From assembly GCA_000002435.2 (NCBI GenBank), contig CM018792.1: a DNA stretch of 64,000 nucleotides. One strand, 5' to 3'. Origin of the DNA: Giardia intestinalis. Its lineage: Eukaryota. Shown here piece after piece: positions 8,288-31,997 of the stretch. Both the position numbers and the translations under genes were made by a program. Positions within the stretch are counted from its first letter, which is position 1, and each line of letters opens with the position of its first letter. The notes beneath the pieces are model-generated. The model saw only the letters and a program-made list of their open reading frames with translations. It did not search any database and was not told the origin of the DNA.

Positions 8288-8302
8288 GTTTACTATCTAA
8301 GT
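8288..8302 (-). terminator. VSP-type extended polyadenylation signal (ACTTAGATAGTAAAC)
   Basis: The motif starts at the A of the TGA stop. It matches the conserved ACTYAGRTAGTRAAY element found 3' of Giardia VSP genes (established knowledge). Confidence 0.75.
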
Positions 8303-10524: not shown

Positions 10525-10590
10525 TAACCAATCTGGTAGATTGATAGGAACAGAATCGCGATATATTCAGCCAATCCGTGTGACTGACAC

Positions 10591-10607
10591 ATGATGATGA
10601 TGATGAT
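10591..10607. repeat. (CAT/ATG)5 trinucleotide microsatellite about 70 nt upstream of the VSP copy 1 ATG
   Basis: atgatgatgatgatgat, read directly. Mirror of 13684-13700. Confidence 0.9.
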
Positions 10608-13360: not shown

Positions 13361-13683
13361 AATGACAACAAAGACCAGAGCTTCACTCACCGTGAAGGGA
13401 GAGCAAGGAGAGGCACCCTAGTAGACCAGCAAGCCTGCAGGACGGCTTGATCTCTGAAAGAACCGATGTGCACACCCAGTCTGAGCTCACGCCCACGGAA
13501 CAGCCGAGGAATGCAGATAGCTCCTCCCTTCCACTACTGTGGTCTTTGTATTGATACACGACCAACCCTCGTCTCCGGACTAGTCAGGGACTGAGCAAGA
13601 GCTTACCCGTGAGATCTCTGGACCATACCTGCAGGCGAGGGCCCCAGCAGCACACCACTGGAAGCAACCGGTGGGTGGAGTAA

Positions 13684-13700
13684 ATCATCATCATCATCAT
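13684..13700. repeat. (ATC)5 microsatellite upstream of the VSP copy 2 ATG, running into an ATG at 13699
   Basis: atcatcatcatcatcatg. The ATG at 13699 opens a 22-codon uORF. Its TAA stop (13765-13767) overlaps the VSP ATG (13767) as ggtTAATGttc. Confidence 0.9.
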
Positions 13701-13766
13701 GTGTCAGTCACACGGATTGGCTGAATATATCGCGATTCTGTTCCTATCAATCTACCAGATTGGTTA

Positions 13767-15989
13767 ATGTTCGGCAGTTTTATATTCGCGGGCCTAGCCA
13801 TCCAGATTGCATGGGCAGAAAAAGTAGCAGAACGTGCGCGGGAAGCTCACTGCGCGAATAACGCCAATTGTGCAGCAAACGCATGCAACGTTCTGATCGG
13901 TGGTAAATTGTATTGCTCTCAATGTAACACAGGATTTGTTCCTATCAATGGAAAATGTGTAGGCAAAGATGATGTAACAGATAAATGTACAGCTGCCGAT
14001 GGAAATACTGCATCTGATGAGACCTGTGCAAAGTGCGCTGGTCAGACTTTTATGTACAAGGGCGGGTGTTACGAACAAGCTATTGAGCCTGGCAATGTGA
14101 TGTGTGGAGGAGCAGCTGGTGGTAAGTGCACACAGGCTACGGAAGGATACTTTCTACCGCCGGGCGCTGATAATGCGCACGACTCGGTTGTTTCGTGCGG
14201 AGATTCGATAGGCGTGACGCTTACTGGCAATAAGAAGTACACGGGCGTGGATGGGTGCACTGCCTGTGACGGATTACAATTAACGGTAGAGGCCAGTGGA
14301 GTTGCTAAGTGTACTGCGTGCGGCCCTGATGCGCAGCAAACCGCGAGGATTGTTAAGACGGACGGCGACGTGACGTCGTGTGTGACGGAACATGAGTGCA
14401 CGAGTACTGCAGGCTTCTTCGTCGATGCAACAGGCAGTAAAAAATGCACCAAGTGCGCTGAGACATGCAAGACCTGTGAGACCGAGGCTACGAAGTGCAC
14501 CTCTTGCAATGAGGACAAGCCGTACCTAAAGAAGGCGCAGTCACAGGATCAGGCAGGCGAGTGCGTGACTGAGGAAGCGTGCACGAGTGGAAACACCCAC
14601 TACGCCGACGATGAGGAGCCGAAGACGTGCAAGCCGTGCACGGCAGGAACGTTTGAGAACTGCAAAACATGCACCAAAAGTGACACCTCCGTTACCTGCA
14701 CAGCGTGTAAGGAAAATATGGTATTTGGACTCGGAAAGAAGTCGTGCATTAGTAGCTGCCCTGATAACTCAGAAGCCAAGACCGAGAATACTTGCACGTG
14801 CAATGATGGATTTAAACTTGACGAAGAAGAAACACAATGCGTGCCAAATGATTCCCCTTCAAATCCATGCAGTACTCAGGATTGTAAGGCATGCAGTGGT
14901 GCACAAACAAACAAAGAGATCTGCACCGAATGTCTGTCCAACAAGTATCTGACGCCAACAAACCAGTGCATAGACCACTGCGAATATATTCTAGGCTACT
15001 ACAGTAGCACAGAGGGCAACAAGAGGGTCTGCAAGAAGTGCGAGGTCGCCAACTGTCTCGCGTGCAGTGAAAATGGCGGGTGCGGTCTCTGTAAGGACGG
15101 CTTCTACGGCGAAGCGTGCTCCCCTTGCGATTCCAGCTGTAAGACATGTAGCGGAAATACTGCCAATGATTGCACAAGCTGTAAGTCTGGAAGCGCGCTC
15201 ACCTACGGATCCACAGGAAACACTGGCACATGTGGGGCCGAGTGCGCGGCGGGCACAGGCACAGGCAAGTGCAGGGAGTGCGGTCTGACTGTTGAGGGGA
15301 CAAAATACTGCTCTGTCTGTAGTCAAAACAACGAGTATCCCCAGAACGGCGTCTGTGCTGTTAAAACCAGTCGCACAGATAAGTGCAAAGATGGAAGCAT
15401 TACTGGTGGCGTGTGCAATGTCTGCGCAGACGGCTTCTTCAAGATGAACGGCGGCTGCTACTCCACCAGCCAGCTTCCGGGGTCGACAGTGTGCTTGAGT
15501 GCGCAGAGTACAGGCGGAACCTGCAAGACTCCGGAAGAAGGATTTAGCCTGACAGGCGAGAGCCTTGTGGCTTGCTACACTGGGTGCGCTGAGTGCACCA
15601 CCACTAGGGACTGTTCTAGGTGCATGGACGGATATGTGAAGGTCGGCAGTGCCTGCACGAAATGCCACGAAAGTTGCTACACCTGCGAAGCCGATGCTAC
15701 TACATGCAAGGTATGTACTCCTGGATATTACAAGGAGAGTAGTAGTAATGGGCCGTGCAGAAAGTGCTCCGAGGGGCTGGCTGGATGCAGGCAGTGCGCG
15801 ACACCTGTTAACGGCAAGTTCATATGTTTCGAAACGGATGATAATACCGGCGACAATACTGGCGGAAGCACGAATAAGAGCGGGCTCTCCACGGGGGCCA
15901 TCGCGGGCATCTCCGTCGCAGTCATCGTCGTCGTTGGGGGCCTCGTGGGCTTCCTCTGCTGGTGGTTCATATGTAGGGGCAAGGCGTGA
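13767..15989 (+). CDS. vsp: Variant-specific surface protein (VSP), 740 aa, copy 2 (identical to copy 1)
   Basis: Same translation as 8302..10524. ATG at 13767. Ends ...WWFICRGKA. Confidence 0.95.
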   Translation: MFGSFIFAGLAIQIAWAEKVAERAREAHCANNANCAANACNVLIGGKLYCSQCNTGFVPINGKCVGKDDVTDKCTAADGNTASDETCAKCAGQTFMYKGGCYEQAIEPGNVMCGGAAGGKCTQATEGYFLPPGADNAHDSVVSCGDSIGVTLTGNKKYTGVDGCTACDGLQLTVEASGVAKCTACGPDAQQTARIVKTDGDVTSCVTEHECTSTAGFFVDATGSKKCTKCAETCKTCETEATKCTSCNEDKPYLKKAQSQDQAGECVTEEACTSGNTHYADDEEPKTCKPCTAGTFENCKTCTKSDTSVTCTACKENMVFGLGKKSCISSCPDNSEAKTENTCTCNDGFKLDEEETQCVPNDSPSNPCSTQDCKACSGAQTNKEICTECLSNKYLTPTNQCIDHCEYILGYYSSTEGNKRVCKKCEVANCLACSENGGCGLCKDGFYGEACSPCDSSCKTCSGNTANDCTSCKSGSALTYGSTGNTGTCGAECAAGTGTGKCRECGLTVEGTKYCSVCSQNNEYPQNGVCAVKTSRTDKCKDGSITGGVCNVCADGFFKMNGGCYSTSQLPGSTVCLSAQSTGGTCKTPEEGFSLTGESLVACYTGCAECTTTRDCSRCMDGYVKVGSACTKCHESCYTCEADATTCKVCTPGYYKESSSNGPCRKCSEGLAGCRQCATPVNGKFICFETDDNTGDNTGGSTNKSGLSTGAIAGISVAVIVVVGGLVGFLCWWFICRGKA

Positions 15990-16003
15990 CTTAGATAGTA
16001 AAC
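15989..16003 (+). terminator. VSP-type extended polyadenylation signal (ACTTAGATAGTAAAC)
   Basis: tgACTTAGATAGTAAACgcg, read directly after the copy-2 stop codon. Confidence 0.75.
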
Positions 16004-18570
16004 GCGTCCATCGTTATACAATCTACTCTACTCTTACGAGGTCCTGCTGGGGGACAGGGAAGAGCCGCCATGCCCTGCACCTGACTACTGCCCGAGTGAC
16101 CATCGTGGGGGACACAGCGATCGTGATGCTCGTGAAGTGGTACGATGCCGGCTCTGGGATCACGCCGCCATCCAGGCAGATGCGTACCATGAAAGGTCTC
16201 TTGTTGCCACCGTCCAGAGGCTCGCAGGACTGCGGGGCTCAGGCAGCCTCTGTCCCATGAGCGAGACTGGCCTCGCTCGGCGCCTCCAGCACTCTGCAGC
16301 TCTGCGTCCTGCCGACCGCCGTGTGCCGACTGACAGTAGTGGGCACTGCATCGCGCAGACACGCAGTCGTCAGCCACTGTTCCGGGTTCCAGCGCCCCTT
16401 CTTCTGTGATCACGTCTGCCTGGCTGGGGTCGTCCCTCCATCCAGAAGCCCGTCCTCTGCAGCCTCTCAGGGGGGGCGCTAAGAGTTGCTTGTCCAACCC
16501 GGGGCATCATAGCGTTCATACTTCGGCTGGACAAGTATCGCGGGCCGTCCTCGTTCACTCTCTGGGCCAGGACGCCAGGTCTACCCGGGCCCCTGCCTGT
16601 CGGCGCTCACTTTCGCAGGCATGCCATATATCTGACAGGCCTGTCTCGCGCGGATGGGGGCACCTTGGTCTGGCTCATCTAAGAGTGGTCCTTCGGTTTG
16701 ACACGACCCTGCATAGCACGTAACCTCTGCAGAGAACGCCCCGCCTGATGACTGCGTGTAGCCTCAGGCAGGTGCATCCTCCTTCCGCACGACTGGAGCC
16801 CGCTGTCCGCTCTTCGCTGCCGCCTGTTTGCAGCTAGGTCATGCCAGAGAGTTGCATGCAGAAGCCTTCCTCACCCAATCGTAAGCTTGTGCGATCCAGC
16901 ACGTCTTGCTTAAAGAGACAAGAGATCACCCTTCCCTTGAAGACAGCCGTGCCGCTATCAAGACCCGGTTCCGTTCATGCCTGGTTCCATGTGCTTGCCG
17001 TCCTTAAGCAGACAGCCCGTGCGCAGGGGGCTATGTTCCCCGCATTGTAGGGCATCAGAAGGTGAGGCATCTTCCTTGCGTCGCATGAATCGCACTGGCC
17101 GCCTGTCTTTCCGCACAGTGTTCAAGGCCGGATGCATCGTGGTTGAAGTGCATGCAGTCTTCCCGCGCCACAAAAGGAGGGGTGCAGCATGGTTCGGGGC
17201 CGCACTCTGGGGCGTCGCTGTTTCATCCTGGAGTAGAGCGCGGGCTCCCTCGTCTGTGGAAGTCTGCTGCCATAATAACCTGCGCTCCCGTCTATGCAGC
17301 TGCTCCGCCTCGGCTGGCTTCTAGCCTCGCCCCTCTGTCCGCGACAGGGCCCTGACCTGATGTCATGTTCAGAGGCAATGCCTGGTCTGCCCGGATGTAG
17401 CAGGACCCTTAGCCCCGTACCACCATCGCCTGGGTCCATCCGAGGCGCGGGAGGCTGGCGATTCTCATGCCTGGATCCTCATCCCTAGTGACGGGCTGAT
17501 CGGTGTCTCTCTGGACCGGCATGCGCAGCGATTCGAGATCTGCGAGGCAGCCATCTATCTCTGCTCGAGCACCGGCTTTGGCCACTCTCAAAGGGGCCGT
17601 GGCTTGTAAGCATGGGCTCAGCATCCTTACCAGGAGCAGGTGCACAGACAGCAGGAGGGTAATAAAGCCTTCCTCAGCACGTCGCTGGCATCCTGCACGT
17701 CCACTCTGTGTCACAAGGGCGTACAGTAGCCACTCATCGCAGCTGTGTTCGCGCTTGGCGGCCTAGGAGGCCCTGTGGTCCACCGGGCAAGCCGCTGGCG
17801 AAGAAGCAGCGGACGTCCCTTTGCCACTGCACCTAGGGAGCCCTCAAGATGCTTTTTCTGTGACGCTCCCGGCTGGCTCCAGACAAATCGCGGGAACCTC
17901 GCGCCTTCTGGACACTGTCTCCCCACTTCGGAGAGGCGCAAAAGCCACCGCTCGGCCGCCACTTGCGCCGGTTCTGTTAGCTGCTACGCGCCTGCACTGT
18001 GCAATAGGATACCCTGCCTTCGGTGACCCGGGGCGGCCTCCAGGGACCGGAGACTGTTCGCATGGCGCCGGCACTCTCGCTTGGGCCTGACAGTGACGTC
18101 CCGCTTCTCCCTACGAGACGGCGCTCCGCTGAACGAGCAGCTCTGCTGGCGGTCCAGAGGATTTGCTTGCTGGCTGTACAGGGCACAAATTAGGCCGCAG
18201 AGTTTTGCTTTATCAGCCTGCCCCTTGCGGAATTATAGATCGAGCAGCCCCTAGGCCACTGCGGTGACGCAGCTTTACTGCTGCAAACAGATTGGCAGTT
18301 GTATAAAGGTGTGCCTGTAGAGAAGCCCGTTAGTACCCTGCAGTCGCGTTGAAAGAACCTCCACTATCCCTCGATGATCCATCCTCTAGCTCAAGAGCTG
18401 TGGCGCCACATAAGGAATCGCATTCAAAAGGATTATGAAAATCATAGTTATCAGAATACTAGTAACCGTAGCAATCGTAAACGTCATGATCGTCAGGAGC
18501 ATGATAATCGTGGTCATAGGAGTCGAGTAATCATAGTCGTCATAGTCGACAATAGTCGCCACCGGTCTTG

Positions 18571-20191
18571 CCATTGTTGCCATCGTCGGCATACCCTCCA
18601 GCTATGGGGGTGATTTCTATGTCCTCCTCCCCCATAAGAAGCTTCGCACACTCTGGCTTATCTAGATATGTTGCCCACGCGAGAGCAGACCAGCCACTGG
18701 CGTCCTGCACACATGCCTCCTTCTCCAAGAGGAAGGGTATGCACAAGGCACTGCCGTTGGCCGCCGCATGCACAAGAGCAGTCGCGCCTCTTATGCCTGT
18801 CATACATGCTTCCCTCTCTAGCAAGCTTAACGCATTCCGGATGGCGATACCGTGCTGCTATCATGAGCGCCGTCAATCATCGTCATCCCTCATGCCGTCC
18901 TCGTGCTTCACCAGAAGCCTCACTGCCTCTGCGTCTCCTCTGTCCGCAGCCCTCATGAGCGCCGTGACCCGGCCTTATCCGTAAGGTCAAGGAGCTCCAG
19001 CATCGGCCCCTGTCCGGCCTTGACGGCAGGAGTGTACACCGCGTCGCCGCCTCGTTCTTCTTGTCCTTTTCACCAAGGTGCTTCTGTGCCGTCTTGAGAT
19101 CTCCAGTAACGGCAGCGCGCATCAGCCGGGTCCACGAGGAGTCCTTCGCAGGGACCCGGAAGGATAGGGACCTCGTGCCGCTCGCTGCAACCTGGTCGGT
19201 CGATTCGATGGAAGCCCCGTGCCCGTCTGCAGTGTGCTGCTCCCGCCCTTTGGTGGAACGGCCCGATGGATGCGCCAATGCCTCTGATATGCTGAGCGGC
19301 ATCTTCGGGCCCTGCCTCGAAAGGACAGACTCGGCACTGGCCGCAGAGACTCGCCCGTGCTTGCCAACTCGCCGGCCTGGAGATCCGGGCCCACAGCAGA
19401 CGTCCCGCACGCAGAAGCAGGCTGGCGAGCTTGGTGGCTGTTGGTCACCACTCGGGGTCTGAGGCAAAGACCCTCCCGAGGACATCCCACACGAGATCCT
19501 TCACAACAAGGCCCAGATTCGGCTTCCATCCGGCGACAAAGGGGCCTTTGCGTCTTACCCGTCCAGGAAGCTCGGCCCCTTCAAAGTGGCAGGCTCGCAT
19601 GCGATAGCACCAAGGGCCCAGAGATCGGAGGCCGCGCCATCTGAGGGCTTCAGGATCCGTGTACGCGGGGCCCTCTGCCTCCGCACTGCCACTGTGCAGA
19701 GCGTTTCTGTGGACGCGAAGTCTGCGAGCACGACGCGCTGTTCGTCCTGTCTAATGAGGGCGTCGGCGGGCGTGAGGCTCTAGTGGACGATTCCCTGGCA
19801 GGGCGCTCCGCTGGCGTCCTCCCAGCAGACGTCATGGAGGTAGGTAAGCCCGGTAGAAAGCTGCTCCATGATGGACAACACCAGGCCCTCAGCGACCGGC
19901 TCGTCGGCCTGCATGTGCTCAAGGAGGAGTTGTCCTAGACTTCTGTGGCCGCGGTCCATGGTTGTGTAGACAAAGCAGCTCGTTCTGATTACCCGGTGGT
20001 ATCTGAGGACGCTCGGGTGCGAAACCCTGGTGAAAGCGTGCGTCCGGAGTTCGAGACCACCCAGGGCTCTTGCGCCCAGATCGTCGCATATGCCCGCAAA
20101 GCCCCTGGAGACTGAACTCGGGGACGCGAGGGCCCTCGGGGCTTCTAGGGGAGGGAGCCTTCCCGCGCTCGTGGAACCCCCTGCAGTGCTC
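18571..20191 (-). pseudogene. NEK-family kinase / ankyrin-repeat pseudogene (right-arm copy)
   Basis: Exact mirror image of 4100-5720. The mirrored ORFs (18658..18876, 18540..18824, 19780..20271) have identical translations. Confidence 0.7.
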
Positions 20192-20953
20192 CTCGCAGCC
20201 GAGCGAGCATCTCTGGGCAGGCATCGCTCGACTCCGCCTCTAGCCGGCAGACTAGCGCCTCTGGCAAACACGCTCTAGTTCTGCCACTCCAACCCCCACT
20301 GCCTTGTTCAGACAGACGAGGAGCCGCATGCCAACCGCGAGCAGGAAGATCCGGCCAGTGACGTGGCAAGGCGCAATGTCTGTCGGTATGCGTCTCCTAG
20401 CACTGCACAAGAGGCGCGCTGTGGTCCATGAGCAGAAGGACGGGTCGAGCGGGAAGGCAAACCAGGGCTGGACCTCTTCCTCGGCACCAACGCATGGGAG
20501 CTGTCCGCCGGCATCCATGAGTGCGTACTCTAACTCCAAGATAGAGGCATACGGGGAGCACACCCTTGATAGTGGGACGGACACCCGCTCCACGAGATGA
20601 CAAGAAAGTATCCGGTGAGCTTCGGGCCATCCCGAGGTTCATGGCGTATGCAATCTTCGTCATAGAGTACCAAGGCCCTAGGCTACGTGGCCAAGATCAC
20701 TGCTTTCCACTCCATACAGAAGTTGGCCCCAAGGGGGCTGAGTGAGAGAAAGGAGAAGCCCAGACGGTGTCGCAAGAGCAAGGTCACGACGCTCAGAGCG
20801 AGGAGGCGCGACACCCCTCCCCTCCCCAGAATCGGGCGGCCTCCAGGCTCTCGGGGTCAACCGCGCAGGGCGGGGGAGAGGCCCCAGCGGGCCTGCTCGG
20901 GCAGCGGGTGGCAAGCAAATTCTACAAAGATTTACTTCTAAGAACGTAAAGGA

Positions 20954-23900
20954 TTAGATCTTGTATTCTTGACATCCCAATATGATTCCTTCTTCAGCTG
21001 CCTGTCTTACATCGTCTGCCTTTCCAAAAACAACAGTTTGACCAGAGATAACGGCTTCAAATGAAACAGCAGCACTCTTAAGGTCATTAATGGTCATGCG
21101 ACGAATTTGGCCAACAGCTCTTCTGTAATCGTTAACACTGTTGCCTTCTAACCAGTAGTCAACGGCCTGGGTAAAGCGAACTAACGGGGCCAAATCCATT
21201 TGGCGCTTACCGACGGCGCCTATTTTGAAGAAAAGAAGCTCTTCAGCAGTTAAGGTAAGGCGGTCGATATATTCTTTAATCTCATCAAACACCTTCTTTG
21301 TTTCTACCAATTGAGGATCTAAGTATGTTGTTAGATAGGACCAGCGTGATCTGGATAAAATAAAGAAGCAGCCACAAGCTCCATTTTCTATTCGTATCTT
21401 TTTTGCAAGATAATCGTAAGTGATGATATGCAAAAGCAATAATTCCGCACCAGTCAGCTCTGTCAACGGAAGCCGGCCACTTCGAGCAACATAATTAACG
21501 TTGACGGGAGCCGCCACAGAGAGCATCCTATGCTGTATGTCTTGTTCCATTTTGAGGAAGCGCTGAGAGTCCTTTTCTGGGGGGCACAAGTCCTTCTTAT
21601 GCAACTTGACCGGGGTAGTTAGAAAGTGCGCGGCATGTTCAGTTATTGGGAATATGTCTGGCTTCATATTCCACTTGTTTATATCGTAAGTATGTGTTGA
21701 GTATTTGTCGTGTATAATAGCTTGAAGCTTTTGAACTATTAGCAGCCCATTAATAATTTTATCTACCACGGCTTGCGTATTGCTGGTGATAATGCGCTTA
21801 TTCATGAAGGGTTCAAGTTCAGGGACATTTAAGCCAATACAAACAGCAATCGATGTGTGCCTTTGCAGAAGCCTTGCATACATGTTCTTCAGCTTCCTTG
21901 ACATAACAATAGCTATCTTCAAATCATCATCGGTCAATGTGTATACATTATGCTTGATGCATTCCTCATCAAAATCAAGTCCGTTGGCGGAGGAAATTTC
22001 GGAGTCAGCCGGGGGCTCCAGCAAAGTCTTCTTCAGGTATTCCAGATAATTGATCCCATTAACATACTCATCATAGATGGCCCCGATACTCCCAGATAGT
22101 GCCATGGCACGCGTGTAAGCGATGTAGTAGCCCATTTTCTGTAAGAAGTGGCTCTCCATTTGCTCCTTATGGCTGTGAAGTATCTTGAATACTAGCTCCA
22201 GATTGCCCAATCCAACCATTGACTTTTGCCAGATTTCGCTGAGTATAAGGTGAAGGGCCTGATCCGTTTTGCTTTCTAAGAATGAAGCATCTATCCTTAT
22301 ATAGGCACGTGGGTATGTTTCTGACGCATTCAGTGTGTGTACGGTTGAATAACGATACTCCATAGAGACGCGGAACTTTCCTAGGACATTGCTAATTGCT
22401 AGCTGCAGCTGCTCCGGAGATTCATAGTTCTCTGTACTGACATTTCCGAGCATCGCACCTGCTAAGAAAGAGATCAAAGGCGCCTCTTCAAAGGTCACCA
22501 GTTCAGAGACGTCAATAAACATACTAAAGTGAACAATTCCATTTCCCAGACTTCCTGTATTATACACGTTTATGGGGACATCATTAAGGTGAACTCCTGG
22601 GCTATTGTGTTTGGAAAGCGATCGAGAAAATATGCGTAGCTGCAAGTAGTCATCTTCAAGAGAGACTAGGTCTGCTTCCGAGACCTGAGGAAACTCCCTG
22701 AGCACCTTCTCGTCGACTTCATTAGAGCGATTGAGTACAGCCAGTGTTTGTGCAACTAAGCCGTTTATCTCCTTCTCTGACATCATACTCTTTTTGTCCT
22801 GGAGCTCTCTTTGCTTGGCTTCTGCTATGTCCTCAGCAAGACCTGGTGTTGGGGTCAAAATAGCATCCTTCCAGGCTTTGTTGTCAATGTAGTATCTTCT
22901 AAGGAGTTCGCGCATATATACACTTATGGTACCCTCTGCTATTTTCTCTCGTAACTCTAGGAATGCCCCTTCAAACAGTAACTCTTCTTCTGGGGTCACA
23001 TTGTAGAACCAAGAGCCGAAAAGTGAGGTCAGAACCTTGACGCCATAGTTAGTCTGATGCTCACGAAGCTCAAACTCAAGTCTGTCCATCTCTGACGAGA
23101 TTCGGGTTGGAGAAAGATAAAACATATAGTCGGAAAGCGGATCCTGCTCTGTTCGCGTACTATTCTCATTCTCCAAAAGAAGGAAGACACGATCAAGCTC
23201 TCTGCGCAGACGACTAGTGGAATCTTCATCATATTCGCACCCGTGAAGACAAATATATGTGTATCCTTGGCAGTTAGTATCATCAGTCTCCACAGATAGT
23301 TCTGAAATAAGGCCCAACTTCTGTAGATGAGCAAGGACAGGAGAGGAAGTGGCACCAAATAAAATTCCAGAAAGGGTGTCAAGCGCTAAGCGCTCTGTTC
23401 GCGTGACTTCGTTAATGTTGAAAGTACGCCACATACGTACCAAATAGCCTTGTCGAAAGCCTACTTGAGATTCCTTTGCGATAGGGTAAGAGAGGCGCAA
23501 TGGTTCTATGCACGCGTTGATGGGTAAAGCGCCTGCTAAAATAGGGGCCTTTTTAACAATGTAAGGAGCCAGCTCTTCGCTGCTCATAGATTCTAGAGGC
23601 TGCAGATATCTATCATATATCAGTGAGAGCTCCTTCTCTAATGGGAGAGTAGAATGGTAGGCTATACGACCGTTTGCCATGGTATAGTGAGTGCTGTGGT
23701 ACTCGACAAGATCATCCGGCTCTAAGGTGACGATGTGATCAGGGTGTCCAATAGATGTATACATGAGACTGCCTCCATCGAATAGAGCCTGCTTAAGAGC
23801 GTGCACAGCGATGTGGATGGGCTCTGAGAAGGCCACTGTTAGCTCATTAAGGATGGCGCCTCGCAGCTCCAGCTCTGACGTATTGCTCATAAGGTGCATG

Positions 23901-24355
23901 GACCACGCTTCCTGGTGAAAGACTCGCTTGTCGTGAAGGAGTGCAGGACAGAACACCGCGTCGAGATAGATGGCCATTATATTCAGATAGTCCTTTTCAC
24001 AACGCGACGCAAAGGGATAAAGAGTAAATGTGTCGTAGGTTCCAGCGTTAAGGTACGTTTTAAGAGATCCTTGTAACAGCTGGCCAAATGGATCTGGAAG
24101 AGGATAACGGTCGGAACCACAAAGAACAGAACGGCTGAGAATGTGCGGAAGGCCTGTATCAGAGGTTGGAGGAGTGCAAAAGCCAATCGAAGCACTGAAT
24201 TCCGGGTAACTTGCCTGAAGCGGGGTCAATTTGATCGCTCGAAAACCAGTAAGCTTGTGCTCTAGTTCGATCAAGGAGCAATCTATCTCTGGTATCTGTT
24301 CAACCGTGCGAACGACGGTGAAGCCCGAAATGACACTTCCTATTGGCGGAGGCAT
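20954..24355 (-). CDS. M16C-family (PreP/Cym1-like) metallopeptidase homologue with a degenerate zinc-binding motif
   Basis: 1133 aa. ATG at 24355 preceded by atatttttaatttataaaaag. The N-terminal block FCTPPTSDTGLPHILSRSVLCGSDRYPLPDPFGQLL...YLNAGTYDTFTLYPFASRCEKDYLNIMAIYLDAV is collinear with the PreP block FRTPP.DSTG.PHILEHSVLCGS.KYP...NAFT..D.T.YPF.......F.NL..VYLDA. HILSR replaces HILEH. Confidence 0.8.
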   Translation of the reverse strand: MPPPIGSVISGFTVVRTVEQIPEIDCSLIELEHKLTGFRAIKLTPLQASYPEFSASIGFCTPPTSDTGLPHILSRSVLCGSDRYPLPDPFGQLLQGSLKTYLNAGTYDTFTLYPFASRCEKDYLNIMAIYLDAVFCPALLHDKRVFHQEAWSMHLMSNTSELELRGAILNELTVAFSEPIHIAVHALKQALFDGGSLMYTSIGHPDHIVTLEPDDLVEYHSTHYTMANGRIAYHSTLPLEKELSLIYDRYLQPLESMSSEELAPYIVKKAPILAGALPINACIEPLRLSYPIAKESQVGFRQGYLVRMWRTFNINEVTRTERLALDTLSGILFGATSSPVLAHLQKLGLISELSVETDDTNCQGYTYICLHGCEYDEDSTSRLRRELDRVFLLLENENSTRTEQDPLSDYMFYLSPTRISSEMDRLEFELREHQTNYGVKVLTSLFGSWFYNVTPEEELLFEGAFLELREKIAEGTISVYMRELLRRYYIDNKAWKDAILTPTPGLAEDIAEAKQRELQDKKSMMSEKEINGLVAQTLAVLNRSNEVDEKVLREFPQVSEADLVSLEDDYLQLRIFSRSLSKHNSPGVHLNDVPINVYNTGSLGNGIVHFSMFIDVSELVTFEEAPLISFLAGAMLGNVSTENYESPEQLQLAISNVLGKFRVSMEYRYSTVHTLNASETYPRAYIRIDASFLESKTDQALHLILSEIWQKSMVGLGNLELVFKILHSHKEQMESHFLQKMGYYIAYTRAMALSGSIGAIYDEYVNGINYLEYLKKTLLEPPADSEISSANGLDFDEECIKHNVYTLTDDDLKIAIVMSRKLKNMYARLLQRHTSIAVCIGLNVPELEPFMNKRIITSNTQAVVDKIINGLLIVQKLQAIIHDKYSTHTYDINKWNMKPDIFPITEHAAHFLTTPVKLHKKDLCPPEKDSQRFLKMEQDIQHRMLSVAAPVNVNYVARSGRLPLTELTGAELLLLHIITYDYLAKKIRIENGACGCFFILSRSRWSYLTTYLDPQLVETKKVFDEIKEYIDRLTLTAEELLFFKIGAVGKRQMDLAPLVRFTQAVDYWLEGNSVNDYRRAVGQIRRMTINDLKSAAVSFEAVISGQTVVFGKADDVRQAAEEGIILGCQEYKI

Positions 24356-24503
24356 CTCTCACTTTTTATAAATTAAAAATATCGCGTCTTGTGGCGTTCT
24401 TTGCAGCTTGGTTGCCCCGGACTTTGAGGGAGTCACCAACAAAGAGACCGCAAGCATCAGCCAGCGTACCACGGGGAATACTTAAGAGTTTAAGATTTCA
24501 ACC
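24356..24503. promoter_or_regulatory. 148-bp divergent intergenic region holding the AT-rich initiators of both flanking genes
   Basis: Minus gene ATG at 24355 (…atatttttaatttataaaaagtgagagATG). Plus gene ATG at 24504 (…cttaagagtttaagatttcaaccATG). Giardia promoters are short AT-rich elements abutting the ATG (established knowledge). Confidence 0.5.
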
Positions 24504-27500
24504 ATGGCATCCTTAGCCACATCCCAGTTTATATTTCATGATGACACAATAGACATCCTTGTGGGCAACAGGGTTGTTAACAATGTGCAGCTTACAAACT
24601 CTTGCATCTTGGCGCTGCACAGAATAGGAAGATTTGATGTGCCTCAAGTCTTTGCCGTCTATATCAGTAGTGAAGAGCCAGGCCTTCATTCTATCCTTTT
24701 CCGTCTGTCGACGATTAAGGATGTTGCCACACTTGTCCCGCTGATGCGTATTGATATTAGCTCCATAATGTCAAATTGTCCGGGATTGACTGTGTCCCAC
24801 CTTTTTCCAGAGCATACTAAGATTCTTTTGTACCTTCGAGAAGAGCACATTTGCATCCAGTTTTCTCCGTCTTGTATCATTTACGCAAACATGCGACTTT
24901 CGCACCGTGTGGATACTGGCGGTGTGTACCGCTTTGTGCTTCCTTCGACTGCCTCATGCATGCTGAACATACCGAATCCAGAACACATTACATCCATGGA
25001 TGCTAACGAGTACCTGTACGCATGTGTAGGAAATGCGCTTTTACGGACCAAGACTCCTATAAATCTTCACATACTAAGCAGGCGACAGACGCCAATGATG
25101 TTTAAGAGGGTTGCAACACTATCCACTTCTGGAGAGTATGTTTGTCTCAATTGTAGTATACTTTCTGACTCTACCCTTTCCGAAATCGACACTCACAGAC
25201 CGGGTTACAAGCATGCTCCTACATTGTTAAAAAGGCCCATAGATATTGCTCCTTTATCACAAAAGTTTTCTCAGCAACTTCAGTCTGCTTACCCTCCTCT
25301 TCCGTCTACCTTGTTGACTCACAAGTGGCAAAAAGAGATCTCTACTGCATCTCATCTCTCTACTAACAGTACCACTTTTATTAAGCACTATATCATGAAT
25401 ATCTCGGGTAGTAGTCAGACTCCTGTGTTTCTCATCGGAACTCTGGTTCATGACACAACAGGGTGTTTCTCTTTCTTCTCAATTAATATCTACACACTCT
25501 CTCAGGTGCCAATGAGCGACTGGAAACGGTACACAAAAAATGAGATGACTTCTGCATCTATGTTTAGACTGTGCAAGACAGTTGGAAGAATCAATTTGGA
25601 TGAGCTGTGTACGTACAGGTTTCCTCTTGCCACGGAAACGGAAATGAAGCCTCAGCAACTAGGCGGTCCGTCGTTGTGTCATACTAAGACATACTTAGAT
25701 AACTTCACCATCTCTCCATTGCGAGCTATCAACAATTCTTTCTTTTTCTCTATGAGCTTCATGGCCCGATATACCGATACAGACGCATTCCGTTTTTTCT
25801 ATGCTTTCCAGGTTAACTGCGAATCTGCAAACATCCGCCTGGTGATGAAGCAGATCTACTTGTCTGTGCCTCGAGCCCCCGACTGCAATGAGTTTGCACT
25901 TACTGAGCAAACGATTATCAATAACACAATTGCAGGGGTACATCTGGTCTCCTTTATATCGGATAAATCGGAGAATCTCCTATACATTCACGATAACACA
26001 AAGGTGTACTTCCTTATGATGTTTAACGAGAAAATCAAGTTTGTGTCCGGTAGGGATCTCACCCTCTTCATCTATTCGTATGCAAATAACGAGCGCGATG
26101 TCTTTAATATTTACAACTTAGAGCTTTCTGAGAATTGTGCATCCCTTCCGGCGGATGGCTTAGAGGCGCAGGAACATGGAGGACTGTTTGAGGCTGTAAG
26201 CTATAAGTATGTGTCTAAATATAGTGTCGGGCTGGCTGCTACATTCTTGCGCCTGGTTGGCTTTGGAAAGAATCTGATGATGATACAAGGGATTGCAGGA
26301 GCTGCTATGCCTTATGGAAACAAGACCGACAAATTAGATGGAGAACTAATTAAGATAACTATATTTTCTGAAAAAGACGGGAACTATTTGTCTTCCTTCA
26401 AGTACTTAGTCCTTCCACACACATCTCGTGACTCTTCTGAAGCGTCTCTAAAGCACGCACTATTTACTAGCTTTGAGAGGTATGGGCAGCTATACATTGC
26501 TTTCTGCACTGAGTATGCTGCCGACAACAGAGTTCAAATGACCGGTGACACGCTCAAGGTGGATAGTCTTGCACGAATAGCTTCCACAGCATCGATCACT
26601 AGAACATCCTCTATCACGACCATAGGGTCAGACCACTCCACTGAGTCTCTCCTTACTATACCGTCCGATCTTTCCGACGCGTCTGTGAAAACATCCTCTG
26701 GCTTAAAGAACCCGGAGCCTCTTCCTGGCTTCCCGTGCCCGAACATAGATACCCATTTGGATCAGCACACTCGGAGCACATTCATGATTCGAGACTTTAA
26801 CTTGCTGACCATTGTGTTTACTATGTCTGGAAGATATCTTTACTCCACAGGTTTCCAAGACTTAGAATACGATGCTCTTCCTTCGACGGAGAAGGTTACA
26901 AGTGATCCGTCTGATGACCCTCAAACGAGTTTCTTTTCTAGCGGGGTGACACAATTTCGCTGTCTATTGCGCAGATCAAATTTAATTCCTCATCGTTTGT
27001 TCTATGTTCTTCCAAATGACTGCTTGCGATTATCTTTTATTACCCCATATGAGCTGCGTGCCCCACTGCAGCGCCACAAGATACATGTAGAGCGCTTCTT
27101 TTTGCCATTTCTTTCAATTGCCACATGCTTCCTTTCCTCTGCGCCAAGCATTCTCAGAACATACACTGCTCACCTGCACACAACGCTTTTTAGGCGCTTT
27201 ATTACAAATGTGCTGACATCCAGCCACTACCTCTTCAACATTACTCTCCGGGACAAGCTGGAACCAGATACTATCATGAAGTACGCCTTCTTCAACCTTT
27301 ACGATGTTTCTGTTTCGATAAGTGAGTTCACCTCTATTTTACTCTTATCTACTTCTCAACATTATGACTATGACTCTCATCTTACAAATTACATCGTAAC
27401 AAAATTATTGATGTCTAAGGATCTTCCAAGAGATAGACTTCTCCCTTACCTAGTCACCGGCGTTCTCTGCTTAACAAAGCAGCTTGGGCCAAAAGGCTCA

Positions 27501-30500
27501 GATAGTATATCTCAGGATCTGGCGTATGATCTGCCCAATTGGTTGGAAACCTACCTTTCTGCTGATCATGTCGCTGTTGATTATACATTGCTGGCTGCCC
27601 ACTCTGGGTCTGTGCCTCGTATTTTCTTACCGGAAGCACATGCTTTCAAAACAGGCCTGCTCAGAGTTCTCCCGTCTGTCTATCTTAGGGGACTCTTTAT
27701 CGCCATTGGTGACACAGAGTACCGCTTATCAAAAGTGCCGAATTCAGTGGTCACCTTCTACTATGTAATAACCAATCGACTTGTTGTACTTGCAAACCTT
27801 TATCTGCGTGCACAGAATACCAAAGTAGCCACTTTCCTTAAATCCCACACGTACAACGGAGAAGACAGCGCGAGATCGTTTGAGGTCGCCAGGAAAAACG
27901 CATTTGTATTACTGACGAAGTGCGATTATTATATGGCAGCAGCATGGTTCGTCTTGGCGGCCGATTTTGAACACATGGTTACTGTTCTTGTTGATAAGCG
28001 CTACATGGCCAACATAGATCTTGGGCTGGCAGTTTTCAGGTATCTGCGAGACACCATGTCTGATTCACTTGTTAAACTGACCCAACTATCTTCGACATTC
28101 GTCATCACACCTGATCATCTTACATCGATGGAAAGAGTTCTTTTTAACTCCACAATCAAGGAGTATGTTGTCACAGAAGATACAGAGGACACTGGGAGCC
28201 TATCTCCGCAAAAGCATACAGTTATCAATCTGGAAAAGTCTGAGATATCAAGGTTGTCGTACAAGATGTCATCAAGCAGAATTCACAAAAACATCACTGA
28301 TTTTACCTCTCACTGTATGGCAGCATACGATATAATCTACTATTACTTTGTTCTAAGTCAATACGAAGACAGCAGCGAATTTCTTGCTGCAGTTATTACA
28401 GATGTTGTTGCTGCGATCATCTCGTTTACGCAGCACACAACTCTAGAAAATGGTACACCAGCGGATATGCACGAGGCTATCTCTGTGGTACTGCATGTAC
28501 TTCACAACTTCATATTCCTTTGCGTCCATTACAAAATGACAAACGAGATCCGGAGCATCTTGAACGCACTATATCGACTTTACTCATGTAACATGTTTGG
28601 GCCCATTGAGAAGTTGCGAATTCTTAATCTGTCCATGTATATTCTTGCTCTAAGCAGGCGCACATTTGCTGCAGTGGAGGGTCTAGGATCGTTCCTCCTA
28701 CTTTCAGATGTCAAGGTCTCTCAGAGGCAGCTCTTTAACGCGTTTGAGCTCTCTTTCGTGTCACTGATCCACTTACACTCTAACACACTTTCAACGTCTC
28801 TGCTCTACAATGCGTTTCTTTATTTTCTAAACCCTAGCCGATATCTTGGCAGCAGCTACACATCTCGAATGAAGAAGCTAAGAGAGCAATGCGACATTGC
28901 AGCAGAAAAAGAGATAGCAGCCACCGGGAAGGATGAGTCTTCAGACAGTCAATCTGACCGCTTCAGACGCATACTATCTACGTTTGTGTTTTACCTTTGC
29001 TTGGGATTCTTCACTGGAGATGGGAAGAGAGCTGCTAACCTCATGTGGGAGAAATATCAGTCTGAGGTAGCAGAGCATATTTTGTTCACTCAATTGAAGC
29101 GACGCCCAAGCAGATTTGACATAGAAAATGCCCACCTAAAAGAGGAAAGAGTTATCAGACGCCGTCGCCTCTGTGCGGCAAGTGTGCCTGACGGCTATAT
29201 TGATGACAATATCGAGCTTGATAATGACAACGACGAGAGTGACAGCAATAACAGTAGCTATAGCTATAGCGATGACGAAAGCTGTCATGAGCCTATAGAA
29301 GCAGACAGTGAGGAAGAGGTTATGATCAAGGAAAAGAGTCATGATAAAACTAGGGTCCATTTGAAGAATCGCCGCTGCCGGCTGCAGACACCAGAAGAGA
29401 TTCAGCACCTGTGCAGAATTGTCCATGCGTATTTCAAAACTATCTTTGGTTTCACACAGTCTCCTCGTATCATAGATCATACTACTCAGATTCTAAACTC
29501 GTTTGAAGCAACTATTCTTCCTGTCGTCAACACCACTATTACAGCAGCTACGTCTAAGGAGATACACGATATGACCGACTCCTTACTTAACTTGATTTCA
29601 ACCCTTTCAACAGGGGACGAGGCGTCTAAGCAGCTCTTGAATTCAGTGCACTCTGAGGCGCGCGTGTTGCAAAGCGAGTCTGAATATCAATCTATGGCGA
29701 CATCGGATAGAGATAGCACGTCTATTATCCAGCAGTTGTTATTTAAGCGTCGTGAAAACCCCACCTCGGCTAGCTCGGATAGAGAGCTGCTTAAACAGCC
29801 AAAGCACAGAGAGAAGCGTGTGATAACGATCTCGGATATGGAGATGCATACGACCATGCTTTCAGATGCTATGAATGGTCCGTACGATACTCCAGGAGAA
29901 GATGACTATGATAGAACTGCGCGTACACCTTTTGCAAAGCATCCTGTTTTACGCCGCAGTCTTGGGTTTGTAATTGTAACAAAGAATAACACATTAATGA
30001 TTGAACAATATGATACCCTACTAGAATTCTATTCATATCTAACACTGACCCCGGGCGGCTACACAAGGTATGTGCCAGCAGCCTTTAATTCTGCACTGGC
30101 TGCAACAGCCCATTCTATCTCATTGTCGCGTAAAGAGGCCTCGACTATGGGCTTTGAAATGCTCTCTGTTTTCCTTACTCACGGGAGCAATAGCTTGTCA
30201 CATCTTGTGCGACATGGCTTGTCAGCAACTAAACGTGTAGAGCCGATGAACTTTGATTGCTTCCTTGCAACGCATGCTCAGAATTCGATTTCGGACGTTC
30301 GGATCTCCAATCTTTTTTACATTTTAATTGCACTACATGAATACACAATTAACAATGGGAGCATGCTTCTTTTTAGAAACACCATGCAGAGCAAGTATGG
30401 ATTGCAGATTCACCTCAATCAACTTATGGAGAAGACAAGTAACTGCCCGTACAAGGATATCCTTCCTGCCTACCATGCCATCTTTAAAGAGATCCAGCGC

Positions 30501-31997
30501 AATGCACTCACCACGGATGAGGTCTCCTATCTGGAAATACTTGAGCACGCAGGCACCACCTTTGTGGAAAGATTACTGATAGCTAAGAAGCTCATTCTAT
30601 TAGAGATTTACTATATTATCAGTAGGTACAAGACGGTTCCTACGAAAGAATCGCGCATCCATCATATGAGAGCAGCGCAGGACTCCGGTGGTGGGGCGCT
30701 AATCCCATCAACCCTGATAACCTTCCTCAAGAACCCGTTTGTATGTTTCCTAAACGGGCTTCTCAACCATATCTTCTACTCTCCGCGGTTGGCACTGAAT
30801 GCTACACCAATTAGTGTGTTGCATAAGACACAGATTTCAGGAAGTCTTGCTGAGGACTTACTGCCCGTTTTAAAGGACACCCTCTTTTGGCAAACATACA
30901 TAGCAAAAGATTGGAAGACAAGTTATGCGGCCAGCGAGCGGTTCTTTGACAGCAGACTTCTAAGATACTGCATTTTTCTCTCTAAGTACATCCTTCTTTA
31001 CTTGTACCCCTCCTCTATCCTTGTGTTCTCCATCGTGCAGAATAACAATCCATCAAGCACTACCACAGTGGACGGGACAATGGTGTCTATAGATACCTTC
31101 GAGGAGTATGGTGCAACAGATGAAAGCGACAGCGGAACCTCTCTCGATGGGAGCTCTGATGTTCCACCAAGATTGGCACGACGAGGTCGCTTAAAGAGCC
31201 GGGGACGGAAGGATCATCAGACTAGGCGTATGTATGACCTCAGATTAGTGCTTGAATACACGAATGTTACTTCGTTTATCCAAACGTCTAAAAACACTTT
31301 CTATCTCCTTGTCAAGTCAAACTATATCATAGGTGTCACGTTACATAAGGACGGCGACGAGGTTGCAACTGTTTCAGCACCTATTTCCACAAACTTCGAC
31401 TCGGAGAAGCTGATAGGTGGATTAGATACCATTAATGACTTAGGGGTTTTGTTTAGCAAATCTATGTACTCTGTGTTCTGCAAAGATGGTATCGTGGTTC
31501 CAGCAGTTCAAAATCGCAACATTAAGTTTGGCCTGACAGATGCATCGTTATCATTGAAAACTGCCACTATTCATGATATGGCACTATTCACCAACTTCCA
31601 GGCGTTGGCGCTAGTCTCCTATCTTGAGCATGGCTCTTCCGACAACACTCCACCCAAGCTAATTCTCGCCACGGTCAACCTTCTTAATTGCTCCATCATC
31701 GACGGCATTGAACTTGAAGAGGCATACGTCCATATTGTCTTGACTAAAGTGCGCGACATTCAAATTCTTCTGCTTTTTGGCGCGAAAGAGTACTGCATTC
31801 TGTGCAAGCATGTGGCAGGAGCAACAGACACTTATATCAAGGCGGAAGGTGGCCTTCTTCCTGAGGACGTGGGATCAGCACTGGTTCTTGCTGAGGCGCT
31901 TTGTGAGGGAAGCCGGGTCATCTACAGGCTTGTCTACGCCGTGGGACGGGGTGCCGTGAAGACCCACGTCATCACATATCATGTGAACGTTGTCTGA
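24504..31997 (+). CDS. Giant hypothetical protein, 2497 aa
   Basis: Uninterrupted 7.5-kb ORF from an ATG. I recognised no domain. It contains an acidic S/D/N-rich cluster (DDNIELDNDNDESDSNNSSYSYSDDESCHEPIEADSEEE). Confidence 0.8.
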   Translation: MASLATSQFIFHDDTIDILVGNRVVNNVQLTNSCILALHRIGRFDVPQVFAVYISSEEPGLHSILFRLSTIKDVATLVPLMRIDISSIMSNCPGLTVSHLFPEHTKILLYLREEHICIQFSPSCIIYANMRLSHRVDTGGVYRFVLPSTASCMLNIPNPEHITSMDANEYLYACVGNALLRTKTPINLHILSRRQTPMMFKRVATLSTSGEYVCLNCSILSDSTLSEIDTHRPGYKHAPTLLKRPIDIAPLSQKFSQQLQSAYPPLPSTLLTHKWQKEISTASHLSTNSTTFIKHYIMNISGSSQTPVFLIGTLVHDTTGCFSFFSINIYTLSQVPMSDWKRYTKNEMTSASMFRLCKTVGRINLDELCTYRFPLATETEMKPQQLGGPSLCHTKTYLDNFTISPLRAINNSFFFSMSFMARYTDTDAFRFFYAFQVNCESANIRLVMKQIYLSVPRAPDCNEFALTEQTIINNTIAGVHLVSFISDKSENLLYIHDNTKVYFLMMFNEKIKFVSGRDLTLFIYSYANNERDVFNIYNLELSENCASLPADGLEAQEHGGLFEAVSYKYVSKYSVGLAATFLRLVGFGKNLMMIQGIAGAAMPYGNKTDKLDGELIKITIFSEKDGNYLSSFKYLVLPHTSRDSSEASLKHALFTSFERYGQLYIAFCTEYAADNRVQMTGDTLKVDSLARIASTASITRTSSITTIGSDHSTESLLTIPSDLSDASVKTSSGLKNPEPLPGFPCPNIDTHLDQHTRSTFMIRDFNLLTIVFTMSGRYLYSTGFQDLEYDALPSTEKVTSDPSDDPQTSFFSSGVTQFRCLLRRSNLIPHRLFYVLPNDCLRLSFITPYELRAPLQRHKIHVERFFLPFLSIATCFLSSAPSILRTYTAHLHTTLFRRFITNVLTSSHYLFNITLRDKLEPDTIMKYAFFNLYDVSVSISEFTSILLLSTSQHYDYDSHLTNYIVTKLLMSKDLPRDRLLPYLVTGVLCLTKQLGPKGSDSISQDLAYDLPNWLETYLSADHVAVDYTLLAAHSGSVPRIFLPEAHAFKTGLLRVLPSVYLRGLFIAIGDTEYRLSKVPNSVVTFYYVITNRLVVLANLYLRAQNTKVATFLKSHTYNGEDSARSFEVARKNAFVLLTKCDYYMAAAWFVLAADFEHMVTVLVDKRYMANIDLGLAVFRYLRDTMSDSLVKLTQLSSTFVITPDHLTSMERVLFNSTIKEYVVTEDTEDTGSLSPQKHTVINLEKSEISRLSYKMSSSRIHKNITDFTSHCMAAYDIIYYYFVLSQYEDSSEFLAAVITDVVAAIISFTQHTTLENGTPADMHEAISVVLHVLHNFIFLCVHYKMTNEIRSILNALYRLYSCNMFGPIEKLRILNLSMYILALSRRTFAAVEGLGSFLLLSDVKVSQRQLFNAFELSFVSLIHLHSNTLSTSLLYNAFLYFLNPSRYLGSSYTSRMKKLREQCDIAAEKEIAATGKDESSDSQSDRFRRILSTFVFYLCLGFFTGDGKRAANLMWEKYQSEVAEHILFTQLKRRPSRFDIENAHLKEERVIRRRRLCAASVPDGYIDDNIELDNDNDESDSNNSSYSYSDDESCHEPIEADSEEEVMIKEKSHDKTRVHLKNRRCRLQTPEEIQHLCRIVHAYFKTIFGFTQSPRIIDHTTQILNSFEATILPVVNTTITAATSKEIHDMTDSLLNLISTLSTGDEASKQLLNSVHSEARVLQSESEYQSMATSDRDSTSIIQQLLFKRRENPTSASSDRELLKQPKHREKRVITISDMEMHTTMLSDAMNGPYDTPGEDDYDRTARTPFAKHPVLRRSLGFVIVTKNNTLMIEQYDTLLEFYSYLTLTPGGYTRYVPAAFNSALAATAHSISLSRKEASTMGFEMLSVFLTHGSNSLSHLVRHGLSATKRVEPMNFDCFLATHAQNSISDVRISNLFYILIALHEYTINNGSMLLFRNTMQSKYGLQIHLNQLMEKTSNCPYKDILPAYHAIFKEIQRNALTTDEVSYLEILEHAGTTFVERLLIAKKLILLEIYYIISRYKTVPTKESRIHHMRAAQDSGGGALIPSTLITFLKNPFVCFLNGLLNHIFYSPRLALNATPISVLHKTQISGSLAEDLLPVLKDTLFWQTYIAKDWKTSYAASERFFDSRLLRYCIFLSKYILLYLYPSSILVFSIVQNNNPSSTTTVDGTMVSIDTFEEYGATDESDSGTSLDGSSDVPPRLARRGRLKSRGRKDHQTRRMYDLRLVLEYTNVTSFIQTSKNTFYLLVKSNYIIGVTLHKDGDEVATVSAPISTNFDSEKLIGGLDTINDLGVLFSKSMYSVFCKDGIVVPAVQNRNIKFGLTDASLSLKTATIHDMALFTNFQALALVSYLEHGSSDNTPPKLILATVNLLNCSIIDGIELEEAYVHIVLTKVRDIQILLLFGAKEYCILCKHVAGATDTYIKAEGGLLPEDVGSALVLAEALCEGSRVIYRLVYAVGRGAVKTHVITYHVNVV

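Follow-up and report, generated by a model that had tools for sequence, protein, structure and literature searches.

Known M16C peptidases and pseudopeptidases

Presequence proteases of subfamily M16C, such as Arabidopsis AtPreP1 (2fge), human PreP/PITRM1 (4l3t, 6xos) and yeast Cym1, have in common a four-domain clamshell of approximately 1000 amino acids that includes an M16C_assoc hinge and a PreP_C domain. In M16 enzymes the two His residues of an HxxEH motif and a distal Glu hold the zinc, and the Glu of the motif activates a water molecule (PMC12731061). An Arg/Tyr (R/Y) pair located in domain 4 completes the active site and stabilises the transition state (PMC12731061 section 3.2). The 64,000-nucleotide stretch of contig CM018792.1 analysed here (Giardia intestinalis, assembly GCA_000002435.2), referred to as the window, includes the gene GL50803_93551, which codes for a full-length protein of this type with the sequence HILSR in the place of HxxEH. 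The reading that we favour, with a probability of roughly 0.65, is that this protein is a catalytically inert M16C clamshell, or pseudo-PreP, that binds peptides and does not cleave them.

GL50803_93551 has in common with PreP the distal Glu, the R/Y-pair Arg and the LNAxT strand that docks substrates. Unlike PreP, the Giardia protein has HILSR for HxxEH and Cys for the Tyr of the R/Y pair, has lost the equivalent of human M206 as well as the GG and P invariants, has no targeting presequence, carries about 130 extra residues in loops and is predicted to be cytosolic. Falcilysin, an M16C protein from Plasmodium, has a similar fold (Foldseek E ~1e-52, TM 0.75-0.80) and is a protist member of the subfamily located outside mitochondria. 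However, falcilysin is an active zinc peptidase that uses H129, H133 and E243 (PMC12731061), while GL50803_93551 is without the general base and one of the His ligands. The same domain set is found in a second G. duodenalis protein, GL50803_9508, and in its G. muris counterpart (P0157). GL50803_9508 keeps HITEH, NEM and R..NGAYG, and its abundance is steady, in contrast to the 18-fold pulse of GL50803_93551 described below.

Pseudopeptidases are already well known among M16 proteins. Like GL50803_93551, alpha-MPP and the bc1 core proteins (M16B) have the M16 fold with a degenerate zinc motif and are under selection; they are functional without catalysis, as is predicted for the Giardia protein. 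The motif of alpha-MPP is HxxDR, with the same His to Arg replacement at the second ligand (PMC11266112 Table 2). These proteins are half-clamshells of about 500 amino acids that have an active beta-subunit partner and a glycine-rich loop, whereas in GL50803_93551 a whole single-chain clamshell appears to be dead and the loss, unlike theirs, is recent and specific to one species complex. The MEROPS class 'subfamily M16C non-peptidase homologs', exemplified by Babesia microti XP_021338727, C05D11.1-like (PMC8621943), likewise consists of full-length proteins annotated as inactive. They belong to different, older lineages, and the Babesia survey table gives no function for them (PMC8621943). To these cases GL50803_93551 adds a recent and datable origin, an intact orthologue and an intact paralogue, and a pulse of abundance during encystation. 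Our literature search found no report noting the degenerate motif in this Giardia protein.

The degenerate zinc motif and the catalytic cleft

The translated open reading frame (ORF) is 100% identical to the 'Metalloprotease, insulinase family' protein of Giardia duodenalis WB (XP_001704875.1, KAE8304424.1, UniProt A8BTG2). It was assigned to GL50803_93551 because its length and 3402-nucleotide span match those in PMC3877021 Tables S1/S2. The gene and the segments of its product that correspond to the PreP active site are the following.

20954..24355, minus strand: coding sequence of the putative M16C (PreP-like) pseudopeptidase, 1133 amino acids, defined by the ORF and its translation
24131..24145, minus strand: degenerate zinc motif H71-I-L-S74-R75 at the place of HxxEH, from the translation and the phmmer alignment
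24038..24052, minus strand: substrate-docking strand L102-N-A-G-T106, kept; it matches residues 135-139 of human PreP when the cleft residues of PMC8983764 are transferred by means of the phmmer alignment
23834..23860, minus strand: distal-ligand segment G166-A-I-L-N-E171-L-T-V174, with E171 kept and the invariant neighbours altered (VV to AI, M to L, G to V/I)
21368..21394, minus strand: R/Y-pair segment R988-I-E-N-G-A-C994-G-C996, aligned with R..GGAYG of AtPreP, with the Arg kept and the active-site Tyr replaced by Cys

A preliminary description of the window, made from the sequence, held that HILSR stands where the family has HxxEH, and that there are substitutions at the catalytic Glu as well as at the second zinc-ligand His. 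The translation and the phmmer alignments bear out both statements. The plus strand at 24131-24145 reads acggctgagaatgtg, and its reverse complement, cac att ctc agc cgt, codes for H71-I72-L73-S74-R75. When the protein was compared by phmmer to all PDB chain sequences, HILSR paired at the top posterior probability with HILQH of AtPreP 2fge, crystallised as an E to Q mutant, and with the HILQH or HILEH of human PreP 4l3t/6xos. The columns of the motif E and of the second H are each 100% conserved in 158 non-Giardia M16C sequences, and by this alignment both the general-base Glu and the second zinc-ligand His of GL50803_93551 are replaced. The idea that the true HxxEH could lie elsewhere was discarded, as neither another HxxEH nor an HExxH was found across the whole protein. 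The distal zinc-ligand Glu (E177 in 'FNEM' of AtPreP, E205 in human PreP), which the same description singled out for inspection, is retained as E171 in 'LNEL' according to the phmmer alignment. This residue is invariant in our M16C alignment (A1), and so are N103, A104 and T106 of the docking strand.

The cleft residues of human PreP include M206, R900 and Y906 (PMC8983764). The R/Y pair is R848/Y854 in AtPreP and R900/Y906 in human PreP, and its equivalent in GL50803_93551 is R988/C994. The Tyr to Cys replacement generates C994-G-C996, which is the only CxC in the protein and lies exactly at the former R/Y pair. With the general base, one zinc ligand and the Tyr all gone, we infer from the established M16 mechanism that the canonical zinc-activated-water reaction cannot run.

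The replaced residues are part of a wider decay. In the 158 non-Giardia sequences, 82 columns show a conservation of 95% or more. Twelve of them (E74, H75, G150, V167, V168, M172, G174, G202, P226, L558, Y609 and Y994) were lost only in GL50803_93551 and its G. duodenalis-complex orthologues (G. duodenalis paralogue 1), versus none in G. muris paralogue 1 alone (binomial p = 0.0005). When all four Giardia M16C lineages are compared, G. duodenalis paralogue 1 has ten losses of its own; the corresponding numbers for the other three are 0, 3 and 2. Documented active-site or cleft residues account for four of the twelve columns (the general base, the zinc ligand, the equivalent of human M206 and the Tyr of the R/Y pair), and three more flank the distal ligand. 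As judged from these columns, the decay is centred on the catalytic site. Other altered positions are located as follows.

23903..23914, minus strand: Q148-E-A150-W versus the family-invariant QEGW; G150A is present in all G. duodenalis-complex sequences, and Ala is also found in the muris-like sequence P0006
23741..23755, minus strand: S201-I202-G-H-P versus the family SGGxP, the invariant Gly gone; G202 is changed to I or V in G. duodenalis paralogue 1 only
23672..23686, minus strand: Y224-T-M226-A-N versus the family YHPxN, the invariant Pro gone; P226M in G. duodenalis paralogue 1 only
22529..22531, minus strand: H609, where 96% of the family has Tyr; the Y609H change, with CAC or CAT as the codon, is confined to G. 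duodenalis paralogue 1

Family membership and predicted fold

Three Pfam domains were detected above the cut-off: M16C_assoc (62.8 bits), PreP_C (48.3 bits) and Peptidase_M16_C (32.1 bits). The phmmer search of all PDB chains matched only Arabidopsis PreP 2fge (E 5e-58), human PreP 4l3t/6xos (E 6e-48) and falcilysin. An AlphaFold2 model generated with a 114-sequence alignment had a predicted local distance difference test (pLDDT) value of 89.7 and a predicted template modelling score (pTM) of 0.88. The top Foldseek match to this model was AtPreP 2fge (E 1.7e-57, TM 0.88), followed by falcilysin and human PreP; TM values versus PreP chains were 0.84-0.89, and the model fits closed or partly closed human PreP better than the open states. 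Since the model is so close to full-length AtPreP, falcilysin and closed PreP, the four-domain M16C clamshell is predicted to be intact. The profile search and the comparison with a solved PreP structure thus agree with the earlier identification of a full-length M16C protein of the PreP/Cym1/falcilysin type.

GL50803_93551 has the architecture expected of M16C proteins, a single chain of about 1000 amino acids with the M16C_assoc hinge and the PreP_C domain. From the set of residues that characterises the active enzymes it has the distal Glu and lacks both the inverted HxxEH motif of domain 1 and a complete R/Y pair, in which R988 is kept and the Tyr is C994. It shares with M16 pseudopeptidases the M16 fold with replaced catalytic and zinc-binding residues, purifying selection and expression. 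The missing match to Pfam PF00675 was considered as a sign of inactivity and rejected as undiagnostic, because intact homologues such as the G. muris orthologue (P0005) are also without a recorded PF00675.

Distribution and timing of the loss

The sequence HIL(S/A)R was present in 16 out of 16 full-length G. duodenalis-complex sequences from the orthologous clusters, a set formed by the sequences identical to WB and their close relatives at the 90% clustering level (including ESU36202.1), P15, ATCC 50581 and two divergent lineages recovered from Logan assemblies. HILSR is the version found in the two NCBI accessions of the WB protein, which are identical, in P15, in ESU36202.1 and in the Logan assemblies; ATCC 50581 has HILAR. 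The same 16 sequences have C994 in the position of the R/Y-pair Tyr, which is kept in G. muris, in the second Giardia paralogue and in other fornicates. The G. muris orthologue (P0005) has HIVEH and a muris-like Giardia sequence (P0006, Logan SRR30592944) has HITEH, and both keep GGAYG. Orthology is backed by synteny, as the M16C gene lies head-to-head with a gene coding for a Rav1p_C protein (~2250-2500 amino acids) in both G. duodenalis and G. muris. Intact motifs were also found in Kipferlia and in two fornicate-like sequences (P0007 and P0010). The motif is dead across the G. duodenalis complex and intact in G. muris and the fornicates; therefore, on this sequence comparison, the catalytic residues were lost after the split between the muris and duodenalis lineages and before the assemblages radiated.

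A sequencing or strain error, a possibility that had been raised in the preliminary description, is excluded because the 16 concordant sequences come from at least five divergent lineages. The finding of an orthologue with an intact motif had been proposed as a sign of such an error. G. muris does have one, yet the G. duodenalis complex is uniformly HIL(S/A)R. Two close relatives of the WB sequence, ESU36202.1 and a Logan sequence (P0121/P0133), carry in addition C79Y and G995S beside the dead site. C79 is the Cys of a near-invariant LCGS and G995 is the Gly of the invariant AYG.

Some of the sequences used in this comparison have features of their own. The muris-like P0006 already has the G150A change at the QEGW glycine while HITEH is kept. 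Its non-synonymous (dN) and synonymous (dS) distances to G. muris are 0.13 and 0.70, a dN/dS of 0.19 that is above those of duodenalis pairs. P0007 (Logan SRR14944320) and P0010 (MetaClust), which branch just outside the two Giardia paralogues in a neighbour-joining tree, are probably from other fornicates or diplomonads; the P0007 gene adjoins NifU and prenyltransferase genes.

Selection on the gene

No stop codon interrupts the M16C frame of any lineage. The Nei-Gojobori dN/dS among four divergent sequences was 0.04-0.06. The gene-wide ratio of non-synonymous to synonymous differences per site (pN/pS), more robust than dN/dS given that dS is saturated, was 0.12-0.16, comparable to the 0.14-0.17 of the neighbouring Rav1-like gene. 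The lowest pN/pS values were those of amino acids 55-135, which include the dead motif and the docking strand (0.033), and of amino acids 969-1015, the R/C block (0.026); those of whole domains were 0.11-0.17. Arg75 is encoded by CGT, CGG or CGC and Leu172 by CTA, TTA or CTG across lineages, and His71, Glu171 and Arg988 persist through synonymous codon changes. Most lineages have Ser (AGC/AGT) at position 74 and assemblage B has Ala (GCT), these codons being several mutational steps apart; this variability fits a site without a remaining chemical role. The open frames, the pN/pS values and the synonymous-only codon shifts at the replaced residues exclude the recent pseudogenisation once suspected for this gene. 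By these comparisons, GL50803_93551 is maintained by selection as a pseudo-enzyme and is neither an error nor a gene on its way out.

The intact paralogue GL50803_9508

The second G. duodenalis M16C gene is GL50803_9508 (XP_001705918.1, P0140). Its product has 1172 amino acids and is 29% identical to GL50803_93551 over the full length. Its HITEH, NEMKS and R..NGAYG are intact in all assemblages, and the G. muris counterpart is intact too, with HILEH. The neighbour-joining tree, a rough method whose topology is indicative only, places the two paralogues as sisters inside Giardia and the fornicate clade with eukaryotic PreP. P0008, together with P0009 (78% identical), was at first taken as belonging to other diplomonads; this was rejected when the cluster look-up identified it as the second G. 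duodenalis paralogue. Identities to P15 are about 92% for GL50803_93551 and 89% for the second paralogue. GL50803_93551 is 84% identical to its ATCC 50581 orthologue and 79% and 78% identical to those of the two Logan lineages, and the second paralogue is 78-80% identical to three further lineages. As measured by protein identity, the paralogue with the dead motif is no less conserved than the intact one.

Expression during encystation

GL50803_93551 was detected by mass spectrometry in the encystation proteome of Faso et al. (PMC3877021). Its mean normalised spectral counts (nSpC) were 0.051, 0.924, 0.127 and 0.255 at 0, 4, 8 and 12 h post-induction, a transient peak with a 4 h/0 h ratio of 18 and a t-test value of 2.8e-5 (PMC3877021 Table S2). 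GL50803_9508 was detected as well, at a near-constant 0.34-0.47 through encystation (PMC3877021 Table S2). The same article cites prior transcript induction of both M16C genes at ~3 h (PMC3877021). A search of the literature on Giardia PreP, on an M16C pseudoprotease or on either gene identifier returned only this encystation proteome.

The sequence immediately preceding the gene includes one candidate element, identified by inspection.

24362..24380, minus strand: AT-rich element ATTTTTAATTTATAAAAAG, a few bases upstream of the ATG

This stretch resembles a typical Giardia initiator/promoter and may have this function. Comparable AT-rich stretches are present ahead of the ATG in three other G. 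duodenalis-complex assemblies (L001-L003). No Myb2-type encystation element (C[T/A]ACAG) was found in the WB upstream region, nor was any conserved there across assemblages.

Proposed function and alternative explanations

The gene probably derives from a Giardia-specific duplication of a PreP-like peptidase gene. Its catalytic residues were lost in the common ancestor of the G. duodenalis complex, once this lineage had separated from that of G. muris. The losses comprise Ser or Ala for the general-base Glu, Arg75 for the second His ligand, Cys for the transition-state Tyr and the changes around the distal ligand. The closed-chamber four-domain fold, the docking beta-strand, Arg988, His71 and Glu171 have been kept. 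Arg75 would fill the empty metal site and pair with Glu171; its position opposite this residue is probable by likeness to HxxDR of alpha-MPP. In such a protein unstructured peptides may still be captured in the chamber by beta-strand docking and remain uncut. Its role could then be that of a holdase or trap for peptides, or it could compete with the intact GL50803_9508 or regulate it, and it would be deployed at the onset of encystation.

The conserved fold, the LNAGT strand, Arg988 and the constrained cleft make a peptide-binding, non-cleaving clamshell the best supported interpretation. The preliminary description had suggested a non-catalytic pseudopeptidase, possibly a peptide binder, and this reading is favoured by the finding that purifying selection is strongest at the former cleft of a protein that is expressed. 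Several considerations weigh against it. Inactivity is deduced from the identity of residues, and two of the three zinc ligands, H71 and E171, are conserved together with R988, while C994 and H609 have newly appeared. The strong constraint on the cleft would also fit a non-peptide ligand or a protein partner. The link to the intact paralogue is a conjecture, and M16C enzymes work as monomers. Finally, dS is saturated among assemblages (1.3-3.1) and also to G. muris, and the absolute dN/dS values are for this reason rough.

If the protein is a pseudo-PreP, it provides a clean, datable case of the passage from enzyme to pseudo-enzyme, with G. muris retaining an intact syntenic orthologue and the G. 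duodenalis genome an intact paralogue. The protein, which is among the few whose abundance rises sharply early in encystation, would then be something other than the 'exopeptidase activity' under which it is filed. This would also speak against assigning the gene to mitosomal presequence processing, and hence against including it in protease inventories or among metalloprotease drug targets. It would also represent a natural substrate-trap variant of the PreP-type chamber, and comparison with the intact orthologue could show which changes accompany the loss of catalysis when binding is kept.

The alternative that survives best, although we consider it unlikely, is that of a non-catalytic scaffold or regulator that acts through protein contacts, perhaps with the active paralogue in early encystation, and in which cleft conservation is only structural. 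Many pseudoenzymes scaffold or regulate their active relatives (PMC11266112), an intact paralogue is encoded in the same genome and the 4 h pulse during encystation points to a role in regulation. However, constraint is uneven along the protein: compared with whole domains, it is 4-5 times higher in the block that holds the docking strand and the dead motif, and likewise in the R/C block, which is what ligand binding in the cleft predicts. Moreover, both halves of the clamshell are in one polypeptide, as they are in other M16C proteins, so that a partner is unneeded, unlike in alpha/beta-MPP.

That the protein is still a peptidase with a rewired site, in which H71 and E171 with C994 of C994-G-C996 and H609 bind a metal or supply a thiol nucleophile, seems improbable to us. 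The persistence of H71, E171 and R988 through synonymous changes, the fixation of Y994C and Y609H in every lineage of the complex, the location of the most constrained blocks in the cleft and the origin of the only CxC at the former R/Y pair would all be compatible with this. Against it, the Ser or Ala (assemblage B) found at the former general-base position 74 offers no fixed chemistry, and Arg75 would repel a cation, the same His to Arg change being a mark of the inactive alpha-MPP (PMC11266112). The C79Y and G995S changes of ESU36202.1, an assemblage A sequence, adjoin these sites, and the M16 literature that was searched shows no member with such a mechanism. In a more speculative version, to which we give little credence, the cleft would have been rebuilt so that His71 and Glu171, with the newly fixed Cys994-Gly-Cys996 and His609 of the opposite half of the clamshell, form a new metal- or redox-sensitive site bridging the two halves. 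Were this true, the protein would be either a hydrolase dependent on a thiol or a metal, by a mechanism unknown in M16, or a redox-gated peptide cage switched on at the onset of encystation.

The preliminary description also placed the protein in the context of reduced mitosomes, a framing for which we found no support. A remnant of a mitosomal presequence protease, that is, a dead chaperone-like PreP kept after presequences were shortened or vanished, is very improbable. The family does include mitochondrial and plastid PreP, and the rough neighbour-joining tree joins the fornicate clade with plant and insect PreP, outside the bacterial set. An organellar presequence protease is characterised by a targeting sequence and an organellar location. 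GL50803_93551 has no N-terminal extension, as nothing precedes the conserved residues of the mature domain and the mature human PreP construct already begins opposite its residue 5, and both Giardia proteins are tabulated as predicted cytosolic (PMC3877021 Table S2). The literature searched includes no report that places either of them in mitosomes. In skoliomonad metamonads, the M16 homologues were judged to be non-orthologous to mitochondrial MPP/PreP and likely cytosolic (PMC11316075), and the G. muris orthologue combines this same N-terminus with retained catalytic residues.

Hardly any weight can be given to a sequencing or strain artefact or to a gene undergoing pseudogenisation, for which the loss of catalytic residues itself is the one argument, in view of the concordance of the 16 sequences, the open frames with a pN/pS equal to that of the neighbouring gene, the replacement residues kept through synonymous changes and the peptides detected by mass spectrometry.

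Genomic neighbourhood

The divergent neighbour of the M16C gene, located at 24504-31997 on the plus strand, codes for a 2497-amino acid protein with a Rav1p_C (RAVE/rabconnectin-like) domain. The two genes share a 148-bp intergenic region, and the arrangement is conserved in G. muris. On the other side, the window includes a perfect (100%) 7,325-bp inverted repeat at 3375-10699 and 13592-20916 with a spacer of 2,892 bp. Each arm carries a 740-amino acid variant-specific surface protein (VSP) gene (Pfam VSP, E 1e-136) and a 200-amino acid ORF, and the right arm ends 38 bp past the stop codon of the M16C gene. The perfect identity of the arms could be due to a very recent duplication, to gene conversion or to an assembly effect.

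In G. muris, Nop14 is found directly after the M16C gene, about 100 bp apart (L004 6342-8564). In the window, Nop14 is located at 794-3604 on the minus strand, approximately 17.3 kb from the M16C gene, and the VSP-bearing inverted repeat fills the gap. Thus, the Rav1 - M16C - Nop14 synteny was interrupted in G. duodenalis by a VSP insertion. The contig that carries the muris-like P0006 (L005, Logan SRR30592944) has the same Rav1 - M16C - Nop14 - ornithine decarboxylase order as G. muris. In one of the other G. duodenalis-complex contigs the gene call for the M16C protein (P0003, L002 3001-6393) begins at TTG (LVGSV...) with an in-frame ATG CCT CCG just upstream, and this 1130-amino acid model is probably short by three codons, which would match the 1133-amino acid cluster member P0135. 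The contigs L001, L002 and L003 all end 260-910 bp after the M16C stop codon, as would be expected if repeated sequence of the VSP type were located downstream there too.

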